This document shows, piece after piece, positions 48,719 through 57,150 of a stretch of DNA of 64,000 nucleotides. The first letter of the stretch is position 1; each line of letters begins with the position of its first letter. Source of the DNA: Escherichia coli (GTDB lineage Bacteria; Pseudomonadota; Gammaproteobacteria; Enterobacterales; Enterobacteriaceae); assembly GCF_002854065.1 (NCBI RefSeq), contig NZ_CP024153.1; one strand, 5' to 3'. Below the pieces are notes generated by a model that did no database searches, was not told the origin of the DNA, and saw only the letters and a list, made by a program, of their open reading frames with translations. Position numbers and translations under genes: made by a program.

Positions 48719-49633
48719 TTAATTACCTTCCATCTTGTAAAAAAGAATCAAATCCTCTAATAATATCTCGATTCCCGCTTTTTTTAATACATCTTTCCGC
48801 TCGGCATATATTTTCCTCAACATATCTTCAAACCCCTTGCCAAGATGAATTTGTTTATGGCAGTTGCAACATAGTGATATGATATTCTCTTCCACATCCA
48901 GTGAATTCTCAAAATAGTCTTGCTTTGACATCGGGACAATGTGATGAGGTTCTGTGTAATTTAGAGGAGAGTTTCGCCTTCTGAACGTTGGATGGTCGCA
49001 ATTAATTTCACATTTATAATCAGCTTTGTTAAGCGCATTTTTTGAAACAGATTTACTTCTTGGGTATGAGAGTCCATTTTTGACTTCTATTGCAGCTTTC
49101 TTAGGTTTCGCTTTTTCGCTATACTCAAATGTCTGAGTAACGTCAAAGTGATTACTTTCTTCTAGAGCAGTGATCAAATCATTATCTGAGTAAAAATCAA
49201 TGCTTGAGCTTTCGTTCGTACTAAAAAAATCTAGTTCTTTTATTGCCTGAACAAGTTCTTCACGGATAGTCCATAAATTTCGCTTTGGGTTTCCTTTAAT
49301 TTCTCTACTTTTCATGACTGTAATGAATTTTGTCCCGGAAGCAATCTTTCCGACTCCTTTAACCTCGAATCGGCCAAGCTGCTTCTGAACTCTTCCACCC
49401 AACCCATTGATTACACCATTAGCACTCATACTGTGCAGGTCGTACTTCTTGCCGATATCGAAACATGTACAGGAATGGTCTGGCTCAATGAACCATTTTT
49501 TTAACGCTGCAATACTTTTGTCATCAAAAACTTTTTTATCCCTTAATAAAATCTTCCATTCTTCAACGCTAATATCTATATCACAGACGTATTCACCATC
49601 AATTACTTCACATATTTTTTCAATCATGTCCAT
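48719..49633 (-). CDS. HNH (His-Me finger) endonuclease-domain protein with uncharacterised ~200-aa N-terminal domain
   Basis: C-terminal YKCEINCDHP...EPHHIVPMS...SLCCNCHKQIHLG HNH/zinc-finger motifs; low-GC gene flanked by ~400-600 bp AT-rich non-coding DNA. Confidence 0.75.
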   Translation of the reverse strand: MDMIEKICEVIDGEYVCDIDISVEEWKILLRDKKVFDDKSIAALKKWFIEPDHSCTCFDIGKKYDLHSMSANGVINGLGGRVQKQLGRFEVKGVGKIASGTKFITVMKSREIKGNPKRNLWTIREELVQAIKELDFFSTNESSSIDFYSDNDLITALEESNHFDVTQTFEYSEKAKPKKAAIEVKNGLSYPRSKSVSKNALNKADYKCEINCDHPTFRRRNSPLNYTEPHHIVPMSKQDYFENSLDVEENIISLCCNCHKQIHLGKGFEDMLRKIYAERKDVLKKAGIEILLEDLILFYKMEGN

Positions 49634-50243: not shown

Positions 50244-51239
50244 TTGTACATACCAGGAGATTACATGCAGGCACCCGGTATACCGGAGAATGAAGAACAG
50301 AGGCTGAAGTCCCTGTATATTACCGGCCTTCTTGATACCCGTGACGATGAGCGTTTTGAACGCCTGACGCGGCTGGCCCGTAAAGCCTTTCAGGTCCCGG
50401 TGGCCCTGATAAGCCTGCTGGATCGCGAGCGCCAGTGGCTCCTCGCCTGCCAGGGCGTCGGCGTGCGCGAAACCCCGCGTAACATCTCGTTCTGCGGGCA
50501 TGCCATTCTGCAGGAGGGGCCCTTCATTGTTCACGACGCAGCTGCTGATGAGCGGTTCCGTGACAATCCCCTGGTCACCGGTGAGCCCCACATCCGGTTC
50601 TACGCCGGCCAGCCGGTGAGCCTGCCCGACGGCACGGTGGCCGGCACGCTGTGCCTGATCCACACCGTTCCCCGCGCCTTCACGGATGATGACATTGCGT
50701 CCCTCCGGGATCTGGCCTGTATCGTGGAAGACGAATTCGAGGCCATCAGCATGGCCATGACGGACAGCCTGACGGGCATTCCCAACCGGCGCGGGTTTTA
50801 CCGCGCCGGCGAAAAACTCTTCCGCGCGATGAACCGGCAGGATGCGTCGTTCAGCCTCATCTATTTCGATCTGGACAGGTTCAAACCGGTGAACGATCTC
50901 TGGGGGCACGCAGAGGGAGACGAGGTGCTGAAGGTTTTTGCCGGCTTTTTACATCAGCACCTCGAACCGGGCGAAATAGCAGGCCGCCTCGGCGGGGATG
51001 AGTTTGCCGCCCTGATCCGGCGAAACGGGAACACGAGTTCTTTTCTGCACGCGCTGAGTGCCAGTTTGGATCATTACAATGACACCTCGGGCAAGCCCTA
51101 CAACATCAATTATTCCTTTGGCGAACTGATCAATAACGCAGACCAGTACGCGACGCTGGCGGAAATGATCGGCAAATGTGACGAAGTGATGTACCTGAAG
51201 AAAAAACGAAAGACCCTGTCGCGGAAAGCAGAACCGTGA
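50244..51239 (+). CDS. GAF-domain diguanylate cyclase (GGDEF)
   Basis: N-terminal GAF-like region; C-terminal ...RLGGDEFAAL... GGDEF active-site motif. Confidence 0.85.
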   Translation: MYIPGDYMQAPGIPENEEQRLKSLYITGLLDTRDDERFERLTRLARKAFQVPVALISLLDRERQWLLACQGVGVRETPRNISFCGHAILQEGPFIVHDAAADERFRDNPLVTGEPHIRFYAGQPVSLPDGTVAGTLCLIHTVPRAFTDDDIASLRDLACIVEDEFEAISMAMTDSLTGIPNRRGFYRAGEKLFRAMNRQDASFSLIYFDLDRFKPVNDLWGHAEGDEVLKVFAGFLHQHLEPGEIAGRLGGDEFAALIRRNGNTSSFLHALSASLDHYNDTSGKPYNINYSFGELINNADQYATLAEMIGKCDEVMYLKKKRKTLSRKAEP

Positions 51240-51808
51240 CGTTCTCCTTCCCGGCTGATCCCCTGCCCCGGGGTTCAGCCGGACGGCAGGAACAATATAT
51301 TTAACCTCATGGCGCATAAAGTCATTTATATTTGCTCATGGCGCAATAATCCTCTCATCGCAACAATTACTCGTTTTTTGTGTCCATGCTGCAAAAATTC
51401 CTCTCTTCCTCTCCCGAGATCCGAAAAAAGGTAGTCCCGGATCTCTGCGAACCCCACCGGCGCGCAGCGGCCCGACAACACAAGATGTAGCGGTGTTTCC
51501 AGCTGATAGTGACGCCATATGTTGTGTCCCTCTCCTGCCCCGTGACCCGGCGCGCAGCATCAGAAAACAGTGCTTCGCTTACTTCCTGACCGTGATAAAC
51601 TTCCGGAAACTTCGCTAAATGTGAAAAGTCGGATCTGCCGGAAACGGTCATTCGGTAATTTAACAGCGTTGCTATATGGCTGCTTATTATCAGTCAAAAA
51701 AATAATTACAGTATGGGAAATTCATCCAGGTGACAGATGCAGGATTGTGCTCAGCTAATTATACCTTGCGTCATAATTACACTTAGTGACTATTTATTAG
51801 GAGGCTAA

Positions 51809-52105
51809 ATGCACGCATCAATGGTTCATGTCTGGGAGTATCTGACACGTTGTGGTCATAAATTTCTATGGCTAAAAATTAACCCTCTACCTCCAGGATA
51901 TACCGGTTCGGTATACAGAGCGCAGTTTGAAATTTACAGCGCGTCGGGCCGTATTCTGGTCACGCTTGATGTGCACAGACAGCAATGGGTGTGTTCAGCA
52001 AACAATCCTCGCCGTGAACCTGCTGATAAAAACGGGGTCATGCTTGATAGCGGTATACCTCTGGATAGAAACCTCGCATCACATTATGCAAAACAGGGGT
52101 ACTGA
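51809..52105 (+). CDS. Hypothetical small protein (98 aa)
   Basis: Strong RBS (AGGAGG) 7 bp upstream of ATG; no recognisable motif. Confidence 0.5.
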   Translation: MHASMVHVWEYLTRCGHKFLWLKINPLPPGYTGSVYRAQFEIYSASGRILVTLDVHRQQWVCSANNPRREPADKNGVMLDSGIPLDRNLASHYAKQGY

Positions 52106-52169
52106 ATGAATCTAACCCTGGTACAAGCACTGGCAGATGCCTGGCGGGATTTCTCAATAAGGATCAAAC

Positions 52170-52841
52170 ATGGCTGACTGGTTTATTGCGACTGAGGGCG
52201 TGAAGGTGGTGAAGGACAGTGCCAGCCTGTGGCCGCAGATCGTTACGGCTATTTCCTCTGCCGGCGCAGCCCTGGTGGGTGTTGCTCTCACACACCGTTT
52301 TACCCGCAGGCGTGAAGAAGCTACTGCTGCACGTAAACGTTACGATGAATTGTACTTTATATCTACCGAGCTAGTTTTTCTGCTGGAGCGTTTTGCACAA
52401 CGCTGTGTTTATTCTGCTAATGAATCAGGGGAATATGACCAAGATGGACGTATTAGGATTGAGTATTCTTTACCTGAAATCAATTTCGAGTCCATTACTG
52501 GGGACTGGCGTTCTCTGCCACCAGGATTGATGTACAGACTTGCTGAATTGCCAGTCATCTGCAGGGAAGCCGCGAGTTCTATAAGTGCGGCGTTCAATGA
52601 AGATACTCCCTTCGATGGATCGTATGGAATTTTCGAACTTAACAGGCAGTCTGCAAGACTCGGATTAAAAGCAATACGTTTATCCCGTTGGCTACGTCAG
52701 CTATGCGATATGCCTGGGGACAGGTTGTCTGACGACCGTTGGTCGGCATGGAGTGTTTTGTATCGGAAGCGCTGGGAGCATATTAGGAATAATAACAATG
52801 TTCACCGCCGATATAAACGGTTGCCTGATGTTACTGAGTAG
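52170..52841 (+). CDS. Hypothetical membrane-anchored protein (223 aa, one N-terminal TM helix)
   Basis: RBS (AGGA) upstream; hydrophobic segment LWPQIVTAISSAGAALVGVAL; ends 19 bp before the recombinase gene. Confidence 0.55.
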   Translation: MADWFIATEGVKVVKDSASLWPQIVTAISSAGAALVGVALTHRFTRRREEATAARKRYDELYFISTELVFLLERFAQRCVYSANESGEYDQDGRIRIEYSLPEINFESITGDWRSLPPGLMYRLAELPVICREAASSISAAFNEDTPFDGSYGIFELNRQSARLGLKAIRLSRWLRQLCDMPGDRLSDDRWSAWSVLYRKRWEHIRNNNNVHRRYKRLPDVTE

Positions 52842-52860
52842 ATGGCTCAGGAGTTAGACT

Positions 52861-53649
52861 ATGAATAATAATTTCCCGGCAGGTATCAGGGATAACACAC
52901 GGAACACCTCGATGAATCTGCCAGTAGCCATCGATTACCCTGCCGCTCTCGCCCTGCGTCAGATGGCGCTCGTGCAGGATGAACTCCCGAAATACCTGCT
53001 GGCGCCGGAAGTCAGCGCCCTGCTCCATTACGTGCCGGATCTTCACCGCAAGATGCTGCTGGCGACGCTGTGGAACACCGGCGCGCGCATTAATGAAGCG
53101 CTCGCGCTGACCCGGGGGGATTTTTCGCTGGCGCCGCCGTATCCTTTCGTGCAGCTGGCCACGCTCAAGCAGCGCACCGAGAAAGCGGCCAGGACGGCAG
53201 GTCGTGCCCCCGCAGGCAGTCAGGTCCATCGTCTGGTTCCCCTTTCCGATCACCACTACGTCAGTCAGCTGCAGATGATGGTGGCCACCCTGAAAATTCC
53301 CCTCGAAAGACGAAACAAACGCACCGGCAGAATGGAGAAGGCGCGTATCTGGGAGATCACAGACCGAACCGTCCGCACCTGGCTTAGCGAAGCGGTGGAA
53401 GCCGCAGCGGCCGACGGGGTGACGTTCTCAGTACCGGTGACCCCCCATACGTTCCGTCACTCCTACGCGATGCACATGCTGTATGCCGGCATACCACTGA
53501 AGGTTTTGCAGAGCCTGATGGGCCACAAATCGATTAGCTCGACGGAAGTCTATACGAAGGTGTTTGCACTTGATGTTGCTGCGCGGCATCGAGTTCAGTT
53601 TCAGATGCCCGAAGCGGATGCGGTAGCCATGCTGAAAGGGAATATTTAA
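52861..53649 (+). CDS. Tyrosine site-specific recombinase (phage-integrase/XerD-like, possibly ResD-type resolvase)
   Basis: C-terminal ...HTFRHSYAMHML...GHKSISSTEVYTKV... catalytic R-H-R-Y signature. Confidence 0.85.
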   Translation: MNNNFPAGIRDNTRNTSMNLPVAIDYPAALALRQMALVQDELPKYLLAPEVSALLHYVPDLHRKMLLATLWNTGARINEALALTRGDFSLAPPYPFVQLATLKQRTEKAARTAGRAPAGSQVHRLVPLSDHHYVSQLQMMVATLKIPLERRNKRTGRMEKARIWEITDRTVRTWLSEAVEAAAADGVTFSVPVTPHTFRHSYAMHMLYAGIPLKVLQSLMGHKSISSTEVYTKVFALDVAARHRVQFQMPEADAVAMLKGNI

Positions 53650-53706: not shown

Positions 53707-53898
53707 TTATCTGGACCAGCTGACGGGAATATCTGCTCTGTATTCCTCATACTGCTCATAGATCGCATGCTGAAGCATCGTAATACGTTCTGACAACCTG
53801 TTGGCGTCCGACATATGCCGCCATTCCCCCTCAATAGTGGTTTTCTGTCCATCCGGGAGATTGAGCGTGATCAATACCTTTGTATCACGAATAATCAC
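53707..53898 (-). CDS. Hypothetical small protein (63 aa)
   Basis: ORF only; no motif recognised. Confidence 0.3.
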   Translation of the reverse strand: MIIRDTKVLITLNLPDGQKTTIEGEWRHMSDANRLSERITMLQHAIYEQYEEYRADIPVSWSR

Positions 53899-53942: not shown

Positions 53943-54755
53943 CTAGACACTTCCGAGCCGTTGATAATACTGGTTTTCATATTCTGTCGGTGACATCTGT
54001 TCGCTAGAACCATGCCGACGCTTACTGTTATAAAACATTTCGATGTAATCAAAAATATCACTGCGGGCTTCTTCCCGCGTTCCGTAGATCTTTTTCTTTA
54101 TCCGTTCGCGTTTCAACAACTGGAAAAAGCTTTCTGCAACCGCATTATCATGGCAGTTACCGCGACGGCTCATGCTGCCCTCCAGGCCGTGTGATTTCAG
54201 GAACGACTGCCATTCATGGCTTGTGTACTGACTGCCCTGATCCGAATGAACCAGCACCTGTTTTTGGGGATTACGCCGCCATACAGCCATCAGCAGTGCG
54301 TTCAGGACAATGTCTTTTGTCATCCGGGACTGCATGGACCAGCCGATAATTTTGTGTGAGAACAGATCAACAACCACGGCAAGATACAGCCAGCCTTCGT
54401 GGGTCCTTATGTAGGTTATGTCCGTTACCCAACGCTCATCCGGAGCATCCGGATTGAACTGTCGCTGAAGCCTGTTGGGCGACACGATACTGGCCTCGCC
54501 TTTACGAGCCCGCGGGCTCCGGTATCCGACCTGAGCCTTTATCCCGATACGTTTCATCAGTCGCCAGACTCTGTTCACTCCGCACTGTTGCCCGCTGTCC
54601 CGCAGATCTAAATGGATTTTGCGATAACCATAGACGCATCCCGATTCCAGCCAGAACTGTTTAATCTGTCCTGTCAGTCTCAGGTCTGCCTGATGGCGTT
54701 GTGAATGCGGCTGCTGAAGCCAGGCGTAAAAACCACTGGGATGAACATCCAGCAC
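53943..54755 (-). pseudogene. IS3-family transposase OrfB (DDE integrase domain); upstream orfA region interrupted by IS30
   Basis: 270 aa with ...WVTDITYIRT...LAVVVDLFSHKIIGWSM...HSDQGSQYTS... IS3-family DDE motifs. Confidence 0.8.
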
Positions 54756-56062: not shown

Positions 56063-57150
56063 GGGCGGATTTCCACACAGCACCGGCGCCCGGCAAGGTG
56101 GGCCGATTTCCACACAGCACCGGTGCGCGGCAAGGTGGGCCGATTTCCACACAGCACCGGCGCCCGGCAAGGTGGGCTGATTCCCACACGGCACCGGCGC
56201 CCGGCAAGGTGGGCGGATTTCCACACAGCACCGGCGCGCGGCAAGGTGGGCTGATTCCCACACGGCACCGGCGCCCGGTAAGGTGGGCGGATTTCCACAC
56301 GGCACCGGCGCCCGGTAAGGTGGGCGGATTTCCACACAGCACCGGCGCCCGGCAAGGTGGGCTGATTCCCACACGGCACCGGCGTCCGGTAAGGTGGGCG
56401 GATTTCCACACAGCACCGGCGCGCGGCAAGGTGGGCCGATTTCCACACGGCACCGGCGCCCGGCAAGGTGGGCGGATTTCCACACGGCACCGGCGCCCGG
56501 TAAGGTGGGCTGATTCCCACACGGCACCGGCGCCCGGCAAGGTGGGCTGATTCCCACACGGCACCGGCGCCCGGTAAGGTGGGCGGATTTCCACACAGCA
56601 CCGGCGCGCGGCAAGGTGGGCTGATTCCCACACGGCACCGGCGTCCGGTAAGGTGGGCGGATTTCCACACAGCACCGGCGCGCGGCAAGGTGGGCTGATT
56701 CCCACACGGCACCGGCGCCCGGTAAGGTGGGCGGATTTCCACACGGCACCGGCGCCCGGCAAGGTGGGCTGATTCCCACACGGCACCGGCGCCCGGCAAG
56801 GTGGGCTGATTCCCACACGGCACCGGCGCCCGGTAAGGTGGGCTGATTCCCACACAGCACCGGCGCCCGGCAAGGTGGGCTGATTCCCACACGGCACCGG
56901 CGCCCGGCAAAGTGGGCGGATTTCCACACAGCACCGGCGCCCGGTAAGGTGGGCGGATTTCCACACAGCACCGGCGCCCGGCAAGGTGGGCTGATTCCCA
57001 CACGGCACCGGCGCCCGGTAAGGTGGGCGGATTTCCACACAGCACCGGCGCGCGGCAAGGTGGGCCGATTTCCACACAGCACCGGCGCCCGGCAAGGTGG
57101 GCGGATTTCCACACAGCACCGGCGCGCGGCAAGGTGGGCCGATTCCCATA
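56063..57150. repeat. Tandem array of ~29 copies of a 37-bp GC-rich repeat (consensus GGGCNGATTYCCACACRGCACCGGYGCSCGGYAAGGT)
   Basis: Period and copy variants read directly; begins exactly at the IS30 end. Confidence 0.9.

Follow-up and report, generated by a model that had tools for sequence, protein, structure and literature searches.

What is the role of two genes of unfamiliar type that lie between the resolution site and the resolvase gene of an enterobacterial plasmid? The question is raised by a locus in a 64,000-nt stretch (the window) of the Escherichia coli plasmid contig NZ_CP024153.1 (assembly GCF_002854065.1), where two open reading frames (ORFs), ORF1 and ORF2, precede a third, resD (ORF3), that encodes a tyrosine recombinase. 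A preliminary description, made from the letters of the DNA alone, had offered two views of this locus, namely a ResD-like multimer-resolution gene with uncharacterised partners or a recombinase-associated cargo or defence module. The comparisons reported here suggest that it is probably a ResD/rfsF locus that carries independent cargo, with ORF2 as a putative protective effector. The first of the earlier views is borne out by the orthology of the recombinase with ResD of the F plasmid and by the presence upstream of a region homologous to rfsF/oriV-1. Of the second, the cargo stands and ORF2 falls within a catalogued family of defence candidates (PDC-S67), while the defence role itself is a prediction.

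The three genes lie on the same strand with spacers of 64 bp (ORF1 to ORF2) and 19 bp (ORF2 to ORF3), and each is preceded by a Shine-Dalgarno motif that can be read directly: AGGAGG at 51799-51804, 4 nt 5′ of the ATG of ORF1; AAGGA at 52159-52163, 6 nt 5′ of that of ORF2; and GGAG at 52850-52853, 7 nt 5′ of that of ORF3. Coordinates, spacers and motifs all match the earlier picture of three co-oriented ORFs with good ribosome-binding sites. These are more than chance ORFs, because the ratio of nonsynonymous to synonymous substitution rates (dN/dS) against homologues is 0.07-0.09 for ResD, 0.16-0.36 for ORF2 and 0.39-0.55 for ORF1, because a full-length homologue of ORF1 (35% identity) occurs in the same position elsewhere, and because AlphaFold2 yields confident models of both ORF1 and ORF2. 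Terminator-like hairpins are found at chance level (two, against 2.4 expected), both within ORF2. By analogy with the plasmid pSLT, and because the spacers are short, ORF1, ORF2 and resD are most likely transcribed as one operon. The locus recurs at 100% identity in many plasmids of E. coli, Klebsiella, Shigella and Salmonella, and the two records inspected among the carriers of the identical stretch were typed as IncFIA/IncFIB.

ORF3 is an orthologue of F ResD, to which it is 92% identical over 241 amino acids (E 8e-166), and its catalytic region (HTFRHSY...GH...VYT) is identical to that of the F protein. It also matches XerA, XerC, XerD and integron-integrase models, with scores below the family cut-offs, as well as the phrog_216 integrase; one database record labels it as the resD resolvase. 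Its designation as a tyrosine recombinase in the preliminary description was therefore correct. It shares 84-98% identity with the recombinases encoded at the equivalent positions in IncFIB, IncR, IncFII(K) and IncI1 plasmids, in chromosomes and in integrative and conjugative elements (ICEs). The first ~18 residues of ResD differ among plasmids. In F, ResD is established to recombine directly repeated rfsF regions on plasmid dimers, which are thereby converted into monomers for partition.

The presumed target of ResD lies upstream of ORF1, in a region of 276 bp that is homologous to the F segment between pifC and ccdA (L007 5850-6345); its alignment with F, IncFIB, IncR and IncFII(K) plasmids has a mean column identity of 66% and contains long invariant blocks. 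Its position relative to rfsF agrees with published maps, in which two rfsF sites and then oriV-1 stand ahead of ccdAB-resD in RepFIA of F (PMC4398462), and IncR plasmids carry rfsF in the interval from vagCD to the resD block (PMC9412624). The rfsF assignment is made by homology at the level of the whole 276-bp region. No second copy of this region is present in the window. Because the recombinase is 92% identical to F ResD and the upstream region is homologous, recombinase and site can be assigned with high confidence to the known ResD/rfsF multimer-resolution system of an IncF-type plasmid. On the same grounds, ResD of this plasmid would be expected to resolve plasmid dimers at directly repeated rfsF regions.

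Between site and resolvase, related loci share a constant frame, formed by the rfsF region to the left and resD to the right, and a variable interior. The interior holds ccdA-ccdB in F, ccdA-ccdB-PSLT029-PSLT030 in pSLT and a single 137-amino-acid gene in R64, and in many IncFIB, IncR and IncFII(K) plasmids, in a Pectobacterium ICE and in Citrobacter and Atlantibacter chromosomes it holds a small gene followed by an ORF2 homologue. Since the frame is the same and only the interior differs, ORF1 and ORF2 stand exactly where F keeps its addiction module ccdAB. Plasmid pSLT illustrates both the acceptance of cargo by this slot and its co-expression with the resolvase: there, ccdA-ccdB-PSLT029-PSLT030-rsdB-PSLT032 forms one polycistronic transcript by reverse-transcription PCR, driven from the promoter of the first gene and including the resolvase (PMC5065971). 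By this comparison the present locus would be ordered as target region, cargo and resD within one operon, with ORF1-ORF2 filling the promoter-proximal slot that ccdAB holds in F. PSLT030 and the R64 137-amino-acid protein were both considered as divergent homologues of ORF2 and were rejected, being unrelated on comparison.

ORF2 belongs to a large family carried by mobile elements. It matches the PADLOC model PDC-S67 (E 8.1e-28, residues 30-212 against profile positions 3-187 of 203) and, over nearly its full length, phrog_33426 (E 5e-35). Four of its homologues, from IncFIB, IncR, IncFII(K) and Enterobacter IncFIA plasmids, also match PDC-S67, with E values from 6e-07 to 4e-45. The family is found in 2083 plasmid records by tblastn and comprises 294 clusters when grouped at 90% identity and 982 when grouped at 50% (E 1e-3 or better); a scan of genome contigs yielded only six loci. 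The earlier statement that the first two proteins are free of motifs holds for Pfam and NCBIfam, where neither protein has a match, and fails for ORF2 with respect to PDC-S67 and phrog_33426. Pfam likewise gave no match for any of 77 aligned relatives of ORF2, and sequence searches of the PDB returned no relative of ORF2 and nothing for ORF1. Some AlphaFold Database entries, including that of a 100%-identical protein, are named “DUF4760 domain-containing protein”; this name is a lead only, as the Pfam hidden Markov model (HMM) of DUF4760 is matched neither by ORF2 nor by the 77 relatives. Foldseek searches of the same database retrieved uncharacterised relatives only, and literature searches on PDC-S67 and DUF4760 returned no functional data.

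Structure prediction, which the preliminary description had proposed for both cargo proteins, gave confident AlphaFold2 models, with predicted local distance difference test (pLDDT) scores of 84.0 for ORF1 and 81.6 for ORF2 (predicted template modelling score 0.70, from 77 sequences). ORF2 is modelled with helices at residues 21-83, 118-144, 151-178 and 193-222. The first third of the long helix is the membrane segment, and a short hairpin and three further helices complete a four-helix bundle. Hydropathy identifies one hydrophobic segment, at residues 23-42 (Kyte-Doolittle 19-residue mean 1.64), so that the single N-terminal transmembrane helix noted earlier is recovered by hydropathy and by the continuous helix of the model; a similar N-terminal segment is present in 63 of the 77 relatives. 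Seven lysine or arginine residues fall within the 20 residues directly after this segment, and because of this distribution of charge (the positive-inside rule) the membrane helix, at about residues 21-42, is predicted to be oriented N-out/C-in with the bundle in the cytoplasm. Residues R48, L68, L72, E73, G111, W113, L175 and R176 are invariant in the family.

Is ORF2, then, a part of the recombination system or a passenger? Linkage between the two is strict, as a ResD homologue lies directly 3′ of an ORF2 homologue in 20 of 20 enterobacterial loci with downstream sequence (plasmids, ICE and chromosomes), with the exceptions in detail that one ICE lineage has a 115-amino-acid gene between the two and that one plasmid has a degraded resD. 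The preliminary description had made its case depend on conservation of both upstream genes with the recombinase; this is found for ORF2, and does not extend to ORF1, which is replaced by unrelated genes and itself precedes other second genes. It had also allowed that the genes might prove to be well-characterised housekeeping plasmid proteins, and none of the three proteins matches one.

Several observations separate ORF2 from the resolvase in spite of this linkage. ResD is 84-92% identical in F, R64 and pSLT, which have no ORF2, and the ResD/rfsF system of F is functional. ORF2 is only 35-58% identical between plasmids whose ResD proteins are 90-96% identical, and in one pair of plasmids it is 35% identical although the first gene is 96.6% identical. 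No recombinase adjoins the distant ORF2 relatives L021, L022 and L024, and another relative, in the nin region of a lambdoid Klebsiella phage, also stands without a recombinase, flanked by a theta-like gene on one side and by HNH/RusA/Q homologues on the other; these recombinase-free relatives are few, and most of the four look-ups fell on very short contigs. Because ResD occurs elsewhere without ORF2, because ORF2 diverges so far, and because some of its relatives have no recombinase, we conclude that ORF1 and ORF2 are best regarded as lying outside the recombination machinery, as independent, fast-evolving cargo.

The cargo is also a mosaic. Locus L017 is ~100% identical to the present one from 52140 to ~53540 within resD, and its ORF2 is 99.6% identical, whereas its ORF1 is 35% identical and the stretch across ORF1 is not alignable above noise. 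In a metagenomic locus (L019) the 3′ two-thirds of ORF2 are 96-100% identical and the 5′ third is divergent. Breakpoints of the cargo fall at ~51790, 52140 and 52390, that is at the module borders and inside ORF2. At comparable dS, dN/dS of ORF2 is two to four times that of ResD, which indicates weaker purifying selection. In these respects the evolutionary pattern of ORF2 resembles that of a conflict locus. As a separate observation, the breakpoint within ORF2 relative to L019 is placed at 52170-52390, and the divergent 5′ third encodes the N-terminal tail and the membrane helix. In an IncI-gamma/K1 plasmid (L015 4126-4861), resD is in three frame-shifted pieces, apparently as a pseudogene, and the ORF1-type and ORF2-type cargo is intact.

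The first-gene position is changeable as well. ORF1 is soluble and basic (pI 9.3), and its predicted fold is alpha-beta4-alpha. The small proteins encoded 5′ of ORF2 homologues fall into five or more mutually unrelated families (Table 1), a chromosomal copy of the locus (L009) has no evident first gene, and homologues of ORF1 also precede two unrelated proteins of ~144 amino acids. The ORF1 position is modular within the recombination mosaic. The 116-amino-acid first-gene family was examined as a candidate homologue of ORF1 and rejected on comparison. Examples of first genes can be seen at L003 3607-3957, L010 7609-7968, L019 5610-5927, L005 3632-3952 and L030 3567-3887. An N-terminal helix with a G-H motif after it is common to the ORF1 type and the first genes of L019, L029 and L030, which may be remotely homologous.

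We favour an autonomous protective role for ORF2 over a role in recombination. As an inner-membrane-anchored protein with its bundle facing the cytoplasm, ORF2 would act as a self-contained protective or “selfish” effector, most plausibly in phage exclusion or abortive infection and, next in rank, in plasmid addiction. Riding on the resD operon, it would be expressed by every copy of the backbone, and ORF1 would be a small modulator open to exchange, such as a sensor, an inhibitor or a regulator. In relatives of the locus, established defence genes lie directly to the left of the rfsF region (Table 1), and PifA is likewise found there in R64. Such a neighbourhood makes a defence role for ORF2 plausible; it would equally explain how a gene with no part in defence could acquire the label of a defence candidate.

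A number of points weigh against a protective effector. No member of the ORF2 family has a demonstrated function. The PDC systems were predicted by “guilt by embedding” in BREX, DISARM and type I restriction-modification (RM) loci, and their authors describe the 145 PDCs as untested candidates (10.1101/2024.01.29.577857). The label could be an artefact of guilt by association, with ORF2 travelling with a recombinase beside a defence hot spot. The four-helix bundle gives generic structural matches only and has no enzymatic or pore-forming signature, and the hydrophobic helix is marginal, its mean of 1.64 standing against a usual threshold of 1.6. A consensus promoter scan found no sigma-70 site 5′ of ORF1. 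Strict adjacency of ORF2 and ResD would also be expected of two functional partners, and in relatives the stop codon of ORF2 and the start codon of resD often overlap.

Among other explanations, addiction survives best, although we regard it as unlikely. ORF1-ORF2 would here be a toxin-antitoxin-like module that replaces ccdAB, with ORF2 as a membrane toxin and ORF1 as a labile antidote or repressor; cells that lost the plasmid would die, and the resD operon would be autoregulated by the pair. In its favour, the pair has the slot, orientation and spacing of ccdAB of F and pSLT and the layout of a small gene followed by a larger one with short spacers, and membrane anchoring is common among toxic effectors. 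In pSLT, moreover, the toxin-antitoxin pair controls transcription of the downstream resolvase (PMC5065971). However, neither ORF1 nor ORF2 shows similarity to CcdA, CcdB or any toxin-antitoxin model, and nothing in the window resembles CcdA or CcdB; the two proteins have no NCBIfam or Pfam match, and the sole PADLOC match, PDC-S67, is not a toxin or antitoxin model. The partners are not co-inherited, as seen in L017 (ORF2 99.6%, ORF1 35%), in the five or more unrelated first-gene families, in L009 with its missing first gene and in the unrelated second genes that follow ORF1 homologues, and vapBC already adjoins the locus in IncR relatives. A strict cognate toxin-antitoxin pair is weakened because the first gene is exchangeable and no DNA-binding antitoxin fold can be recognised.

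Even less probable is that ORF2, possibly together with ORF1, serves as an accessory or regulatory factor of ResD, for instance as a membrane tether or activator that would confine resolution to certain places or times, in loose analogy to the effect of FtsK on XerCD. The adjacency in 20 of 20 loci and the frequently overlapping stop and start codons would suit such a factor, as would the variable N-terminus of ResD that adjoins the variable 3′ end of ORF2. Nevertheless, F, pSLT and R64 have ResD orthologues (84-92%) and an rfsF region and no ORF2; the identity of ORF2 falls to 35% against a conserved ResD and site region, which is unexpected of a specific partner; distant relatives, including that of the phage, occur without a recombinase; and ORF2 has no recognisable DNA-binding fold. 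Very improbable, finally, is that the recombinase inverts or integrates a segment including ORF1-ORF2 (a shufflon or integrative cassette) in place of multimer resolution, since, despite the weak matches of this tyrosine recombinase to integron-integrase and invertase models, the variable cargo beside it and published suggestions that plasmids exchange gene sets through rfsF-ResD (PMC8004404, PMC9412624), the search of the flanks for the invertible segment envisaged in the preliminary description found no significant inverted repeats bracketing 51800-52860 (the only pair, of 19 nt with 79% complementarity, lies inside the ORFs), the window has one rfsF-like region, one palindrome and one recombinase, the cargo breakpoints lie outside the conserved site region, and ORF3 is orthologous to a characterised resolvase, so that with no bracketing repeats and no second site the system fits resolution and not inversion.

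Table 1. Features of the locus (window coordinates) and defence genes left of the rfsF region in related loci (coordinates of the locus named); aa, amino acids
Feature	Position	Strand	Description
rfsF/oriV-1-like region	51415-51690	.	non-coding, conserved; presumed ResD target and regulatory region, by alignment
Palindrome GAGATCCG-N14-CGGATCTC	51416-51445		1 occurrence in window against 0.02 expected
Inverted repeat ACACAAGATGT.../...ATATGTTGTGT	51478-51527		within rfsF/oriV-1-like region
Direct repeats CTTCCGGAAAC / CTGCCGGAAAC	51600-51610 and 51635-51645		within rfsF/oriV-1-like region
ORF1	51809-52105	+	98 aa; promoter-proximal, exchangeable first cargo gene
ORF2	52170-52841	+	223 aa; N-terminal membrane helix (predicted) and four-helix bundle; PDC-S67 / phrog_33426 family
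resD (ORF3)	52861-53649	+	262 aa; tyrosine recombinase, orthologue of F-plasmid ResD (D protein) multimer resolvase
First-gene families 5′ of ORF2 homologues			ORF1 type; 116-aa family (phrog_36524); 119-120-aa family; 105-aa protein; 106-aa protein
GajA (Gabija)	L004 707-2269		IncR
CBASS cyclase and 4TM effector, PD-T4-5	L010 2988-6943		Pectobacterium ICE
PifA and TIR protein (PDC-S35)	L012 2785-5959		Citrobacter
PifA	L007 2446-4671		F

Around the locus, the window has a GGDEF gene on the 5′ side and insertion sequence (IS) elements of the IS3 and IS30 families on the 3′ side, and it also encodes SopA, two Rep proteins and a single recombinase of the ResD type. Genes for cyclic di-GMP enzymes recur near resD. 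The GGDEF gene (50244-51239) lies directly 5′ of the rfsF-like region, an EAL gene lies 3′ of the resD locus in a Klebsiella plasmid, and PSLT032 of the pSLT rsdB operon is counted among such genes (PMC5065971); in relatives they are located at L031 8258-8809 and L016 4428-5264. Just 3′ of resD, a small convergent ORF (53707-53898, minus strand) corresponds to the C-terminal part of a hypothetical protein of 85-96 amino acids, conserved in IncR and Enterobacter plasmids at the position following resD; here it is cut off by an IS3-family element that starts near 53943. Further upstream (48719-49633, minus strand), an AT-rich gene (G+C ~0.37-0.39) encodes a 304-amino-acid protein with an HNH motif, annotated as an HNH endonuclease in plasmid records, which weakly matches a model of type IV methyl-directed restriction enzymes (E 5.5e-07) and the HNH of IscB. 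At 56063-57148 a GC-rich unit of 37 nt (GGGCGGATTTCCACACGGCACCGGCGCCCGGCAAGGT) is repeated in tandem 29.4 times (91% matches); the array is open in several frames on both strands and has a local G+C of 0.68. Among the relatives, residues 1-86 of ORF2 are found at 100% identity on a 1.1-kb contig (L027, CAAFVW010000043.1) of a Lachnospiraceae metagenome-assembled genome, which is most likely a mis-binned fragment of an enterobacterial plasmid.

Resolution by ResD is textbook biology, and the interest of the locus lies in ORF2, a functionally uncharacterised family found on over 2000 sequenced plasmids from clinical Enterobacterales, among them IncFIB, IncR and IncFII(K) backbones with resistance and virulence genes. 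The family is tied to the multimer-resolution operon at the position of the F addiction module and evolves like a conflict gene. Were ORF2 to prove an effector of defence or addiction, a further widespread system of plasmids would come to light, and part of the persistence of these backbones would be explained; were it a mere hitch-hiker, it would be a cautionary case for catalogues of defence candidates drawn up from neighbourhoods. A broader and distinctly tentative view, which we hold to be less likely than not, is that enterobacterial plasmids and ICEs in general use the rfsF-resD interval as a cargo slot, so far unremarked, for exchangeable two-gene modules, with the ORF2 family as its commonest occupant. 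ORF2 would then be a new effector, a four-helix bundle anchored in the membrane, that acts in phage exclusion, in abortive infection or in addiction. The ResD-repressed promoter would couple its expression to the multimer or copy state of the plasmid, and the first gene would determine what the effector responds to.

Among known systems, rfsF-ccdA-ccdB-resD of F is the nearest. Both have the homologous rfsF/oriV-1 region and a ResD that is 92% identical, and in both the site, two promoter-proximal genes and resD follow each other on one strand with minimal spacers. ORF1 and ORF2, however, stand in place of ccdA and ccdB and are unrelated to either, and ORF2 is predicted to be anchored in the membrane, whereas CcdB is a soluble gyrase poison. 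The pSLT locus is similar in having extra genes of uncharacterised function between the site region and the resolvase; it differs in that neither PSLT029 nor PSLT030 is related to ORF1 or ORF2, and in that ccdAB is retained as the first genes. With the rfsF-resD loci of R64, ColIb-P9 and IncR plasmids, the present locus shares a recombinase family (84-96% identical) and a common rfsF junction, which is a published hot spot for the exchange of neighbouring gene sets between plasmids (PMC8004404, PMC9412624). R64 differs in having one unrelated 137-amino-acid gene ahead of resD, and IncR in having a 116-amino-acid gene and an ORF2 homologue that is only 39% identical to ORF2. As for PDC-S67, its HMM is matched by ORF2 and by the four plasmid homologues; PDC-S67 is, however, defined as a single-gene candidate, whereas ORF2 forms part of a resolvase operon in which the gene ahead of it varies, and in the window it has no BREX, DISARM or type I RM system around it. 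The sequence itself is not new and the type of system is already known; the modest novelty lies in recognising the slot, the tight linkage between ORF2 and ResD, and the conflict-like mosaic evolution of the cargo.

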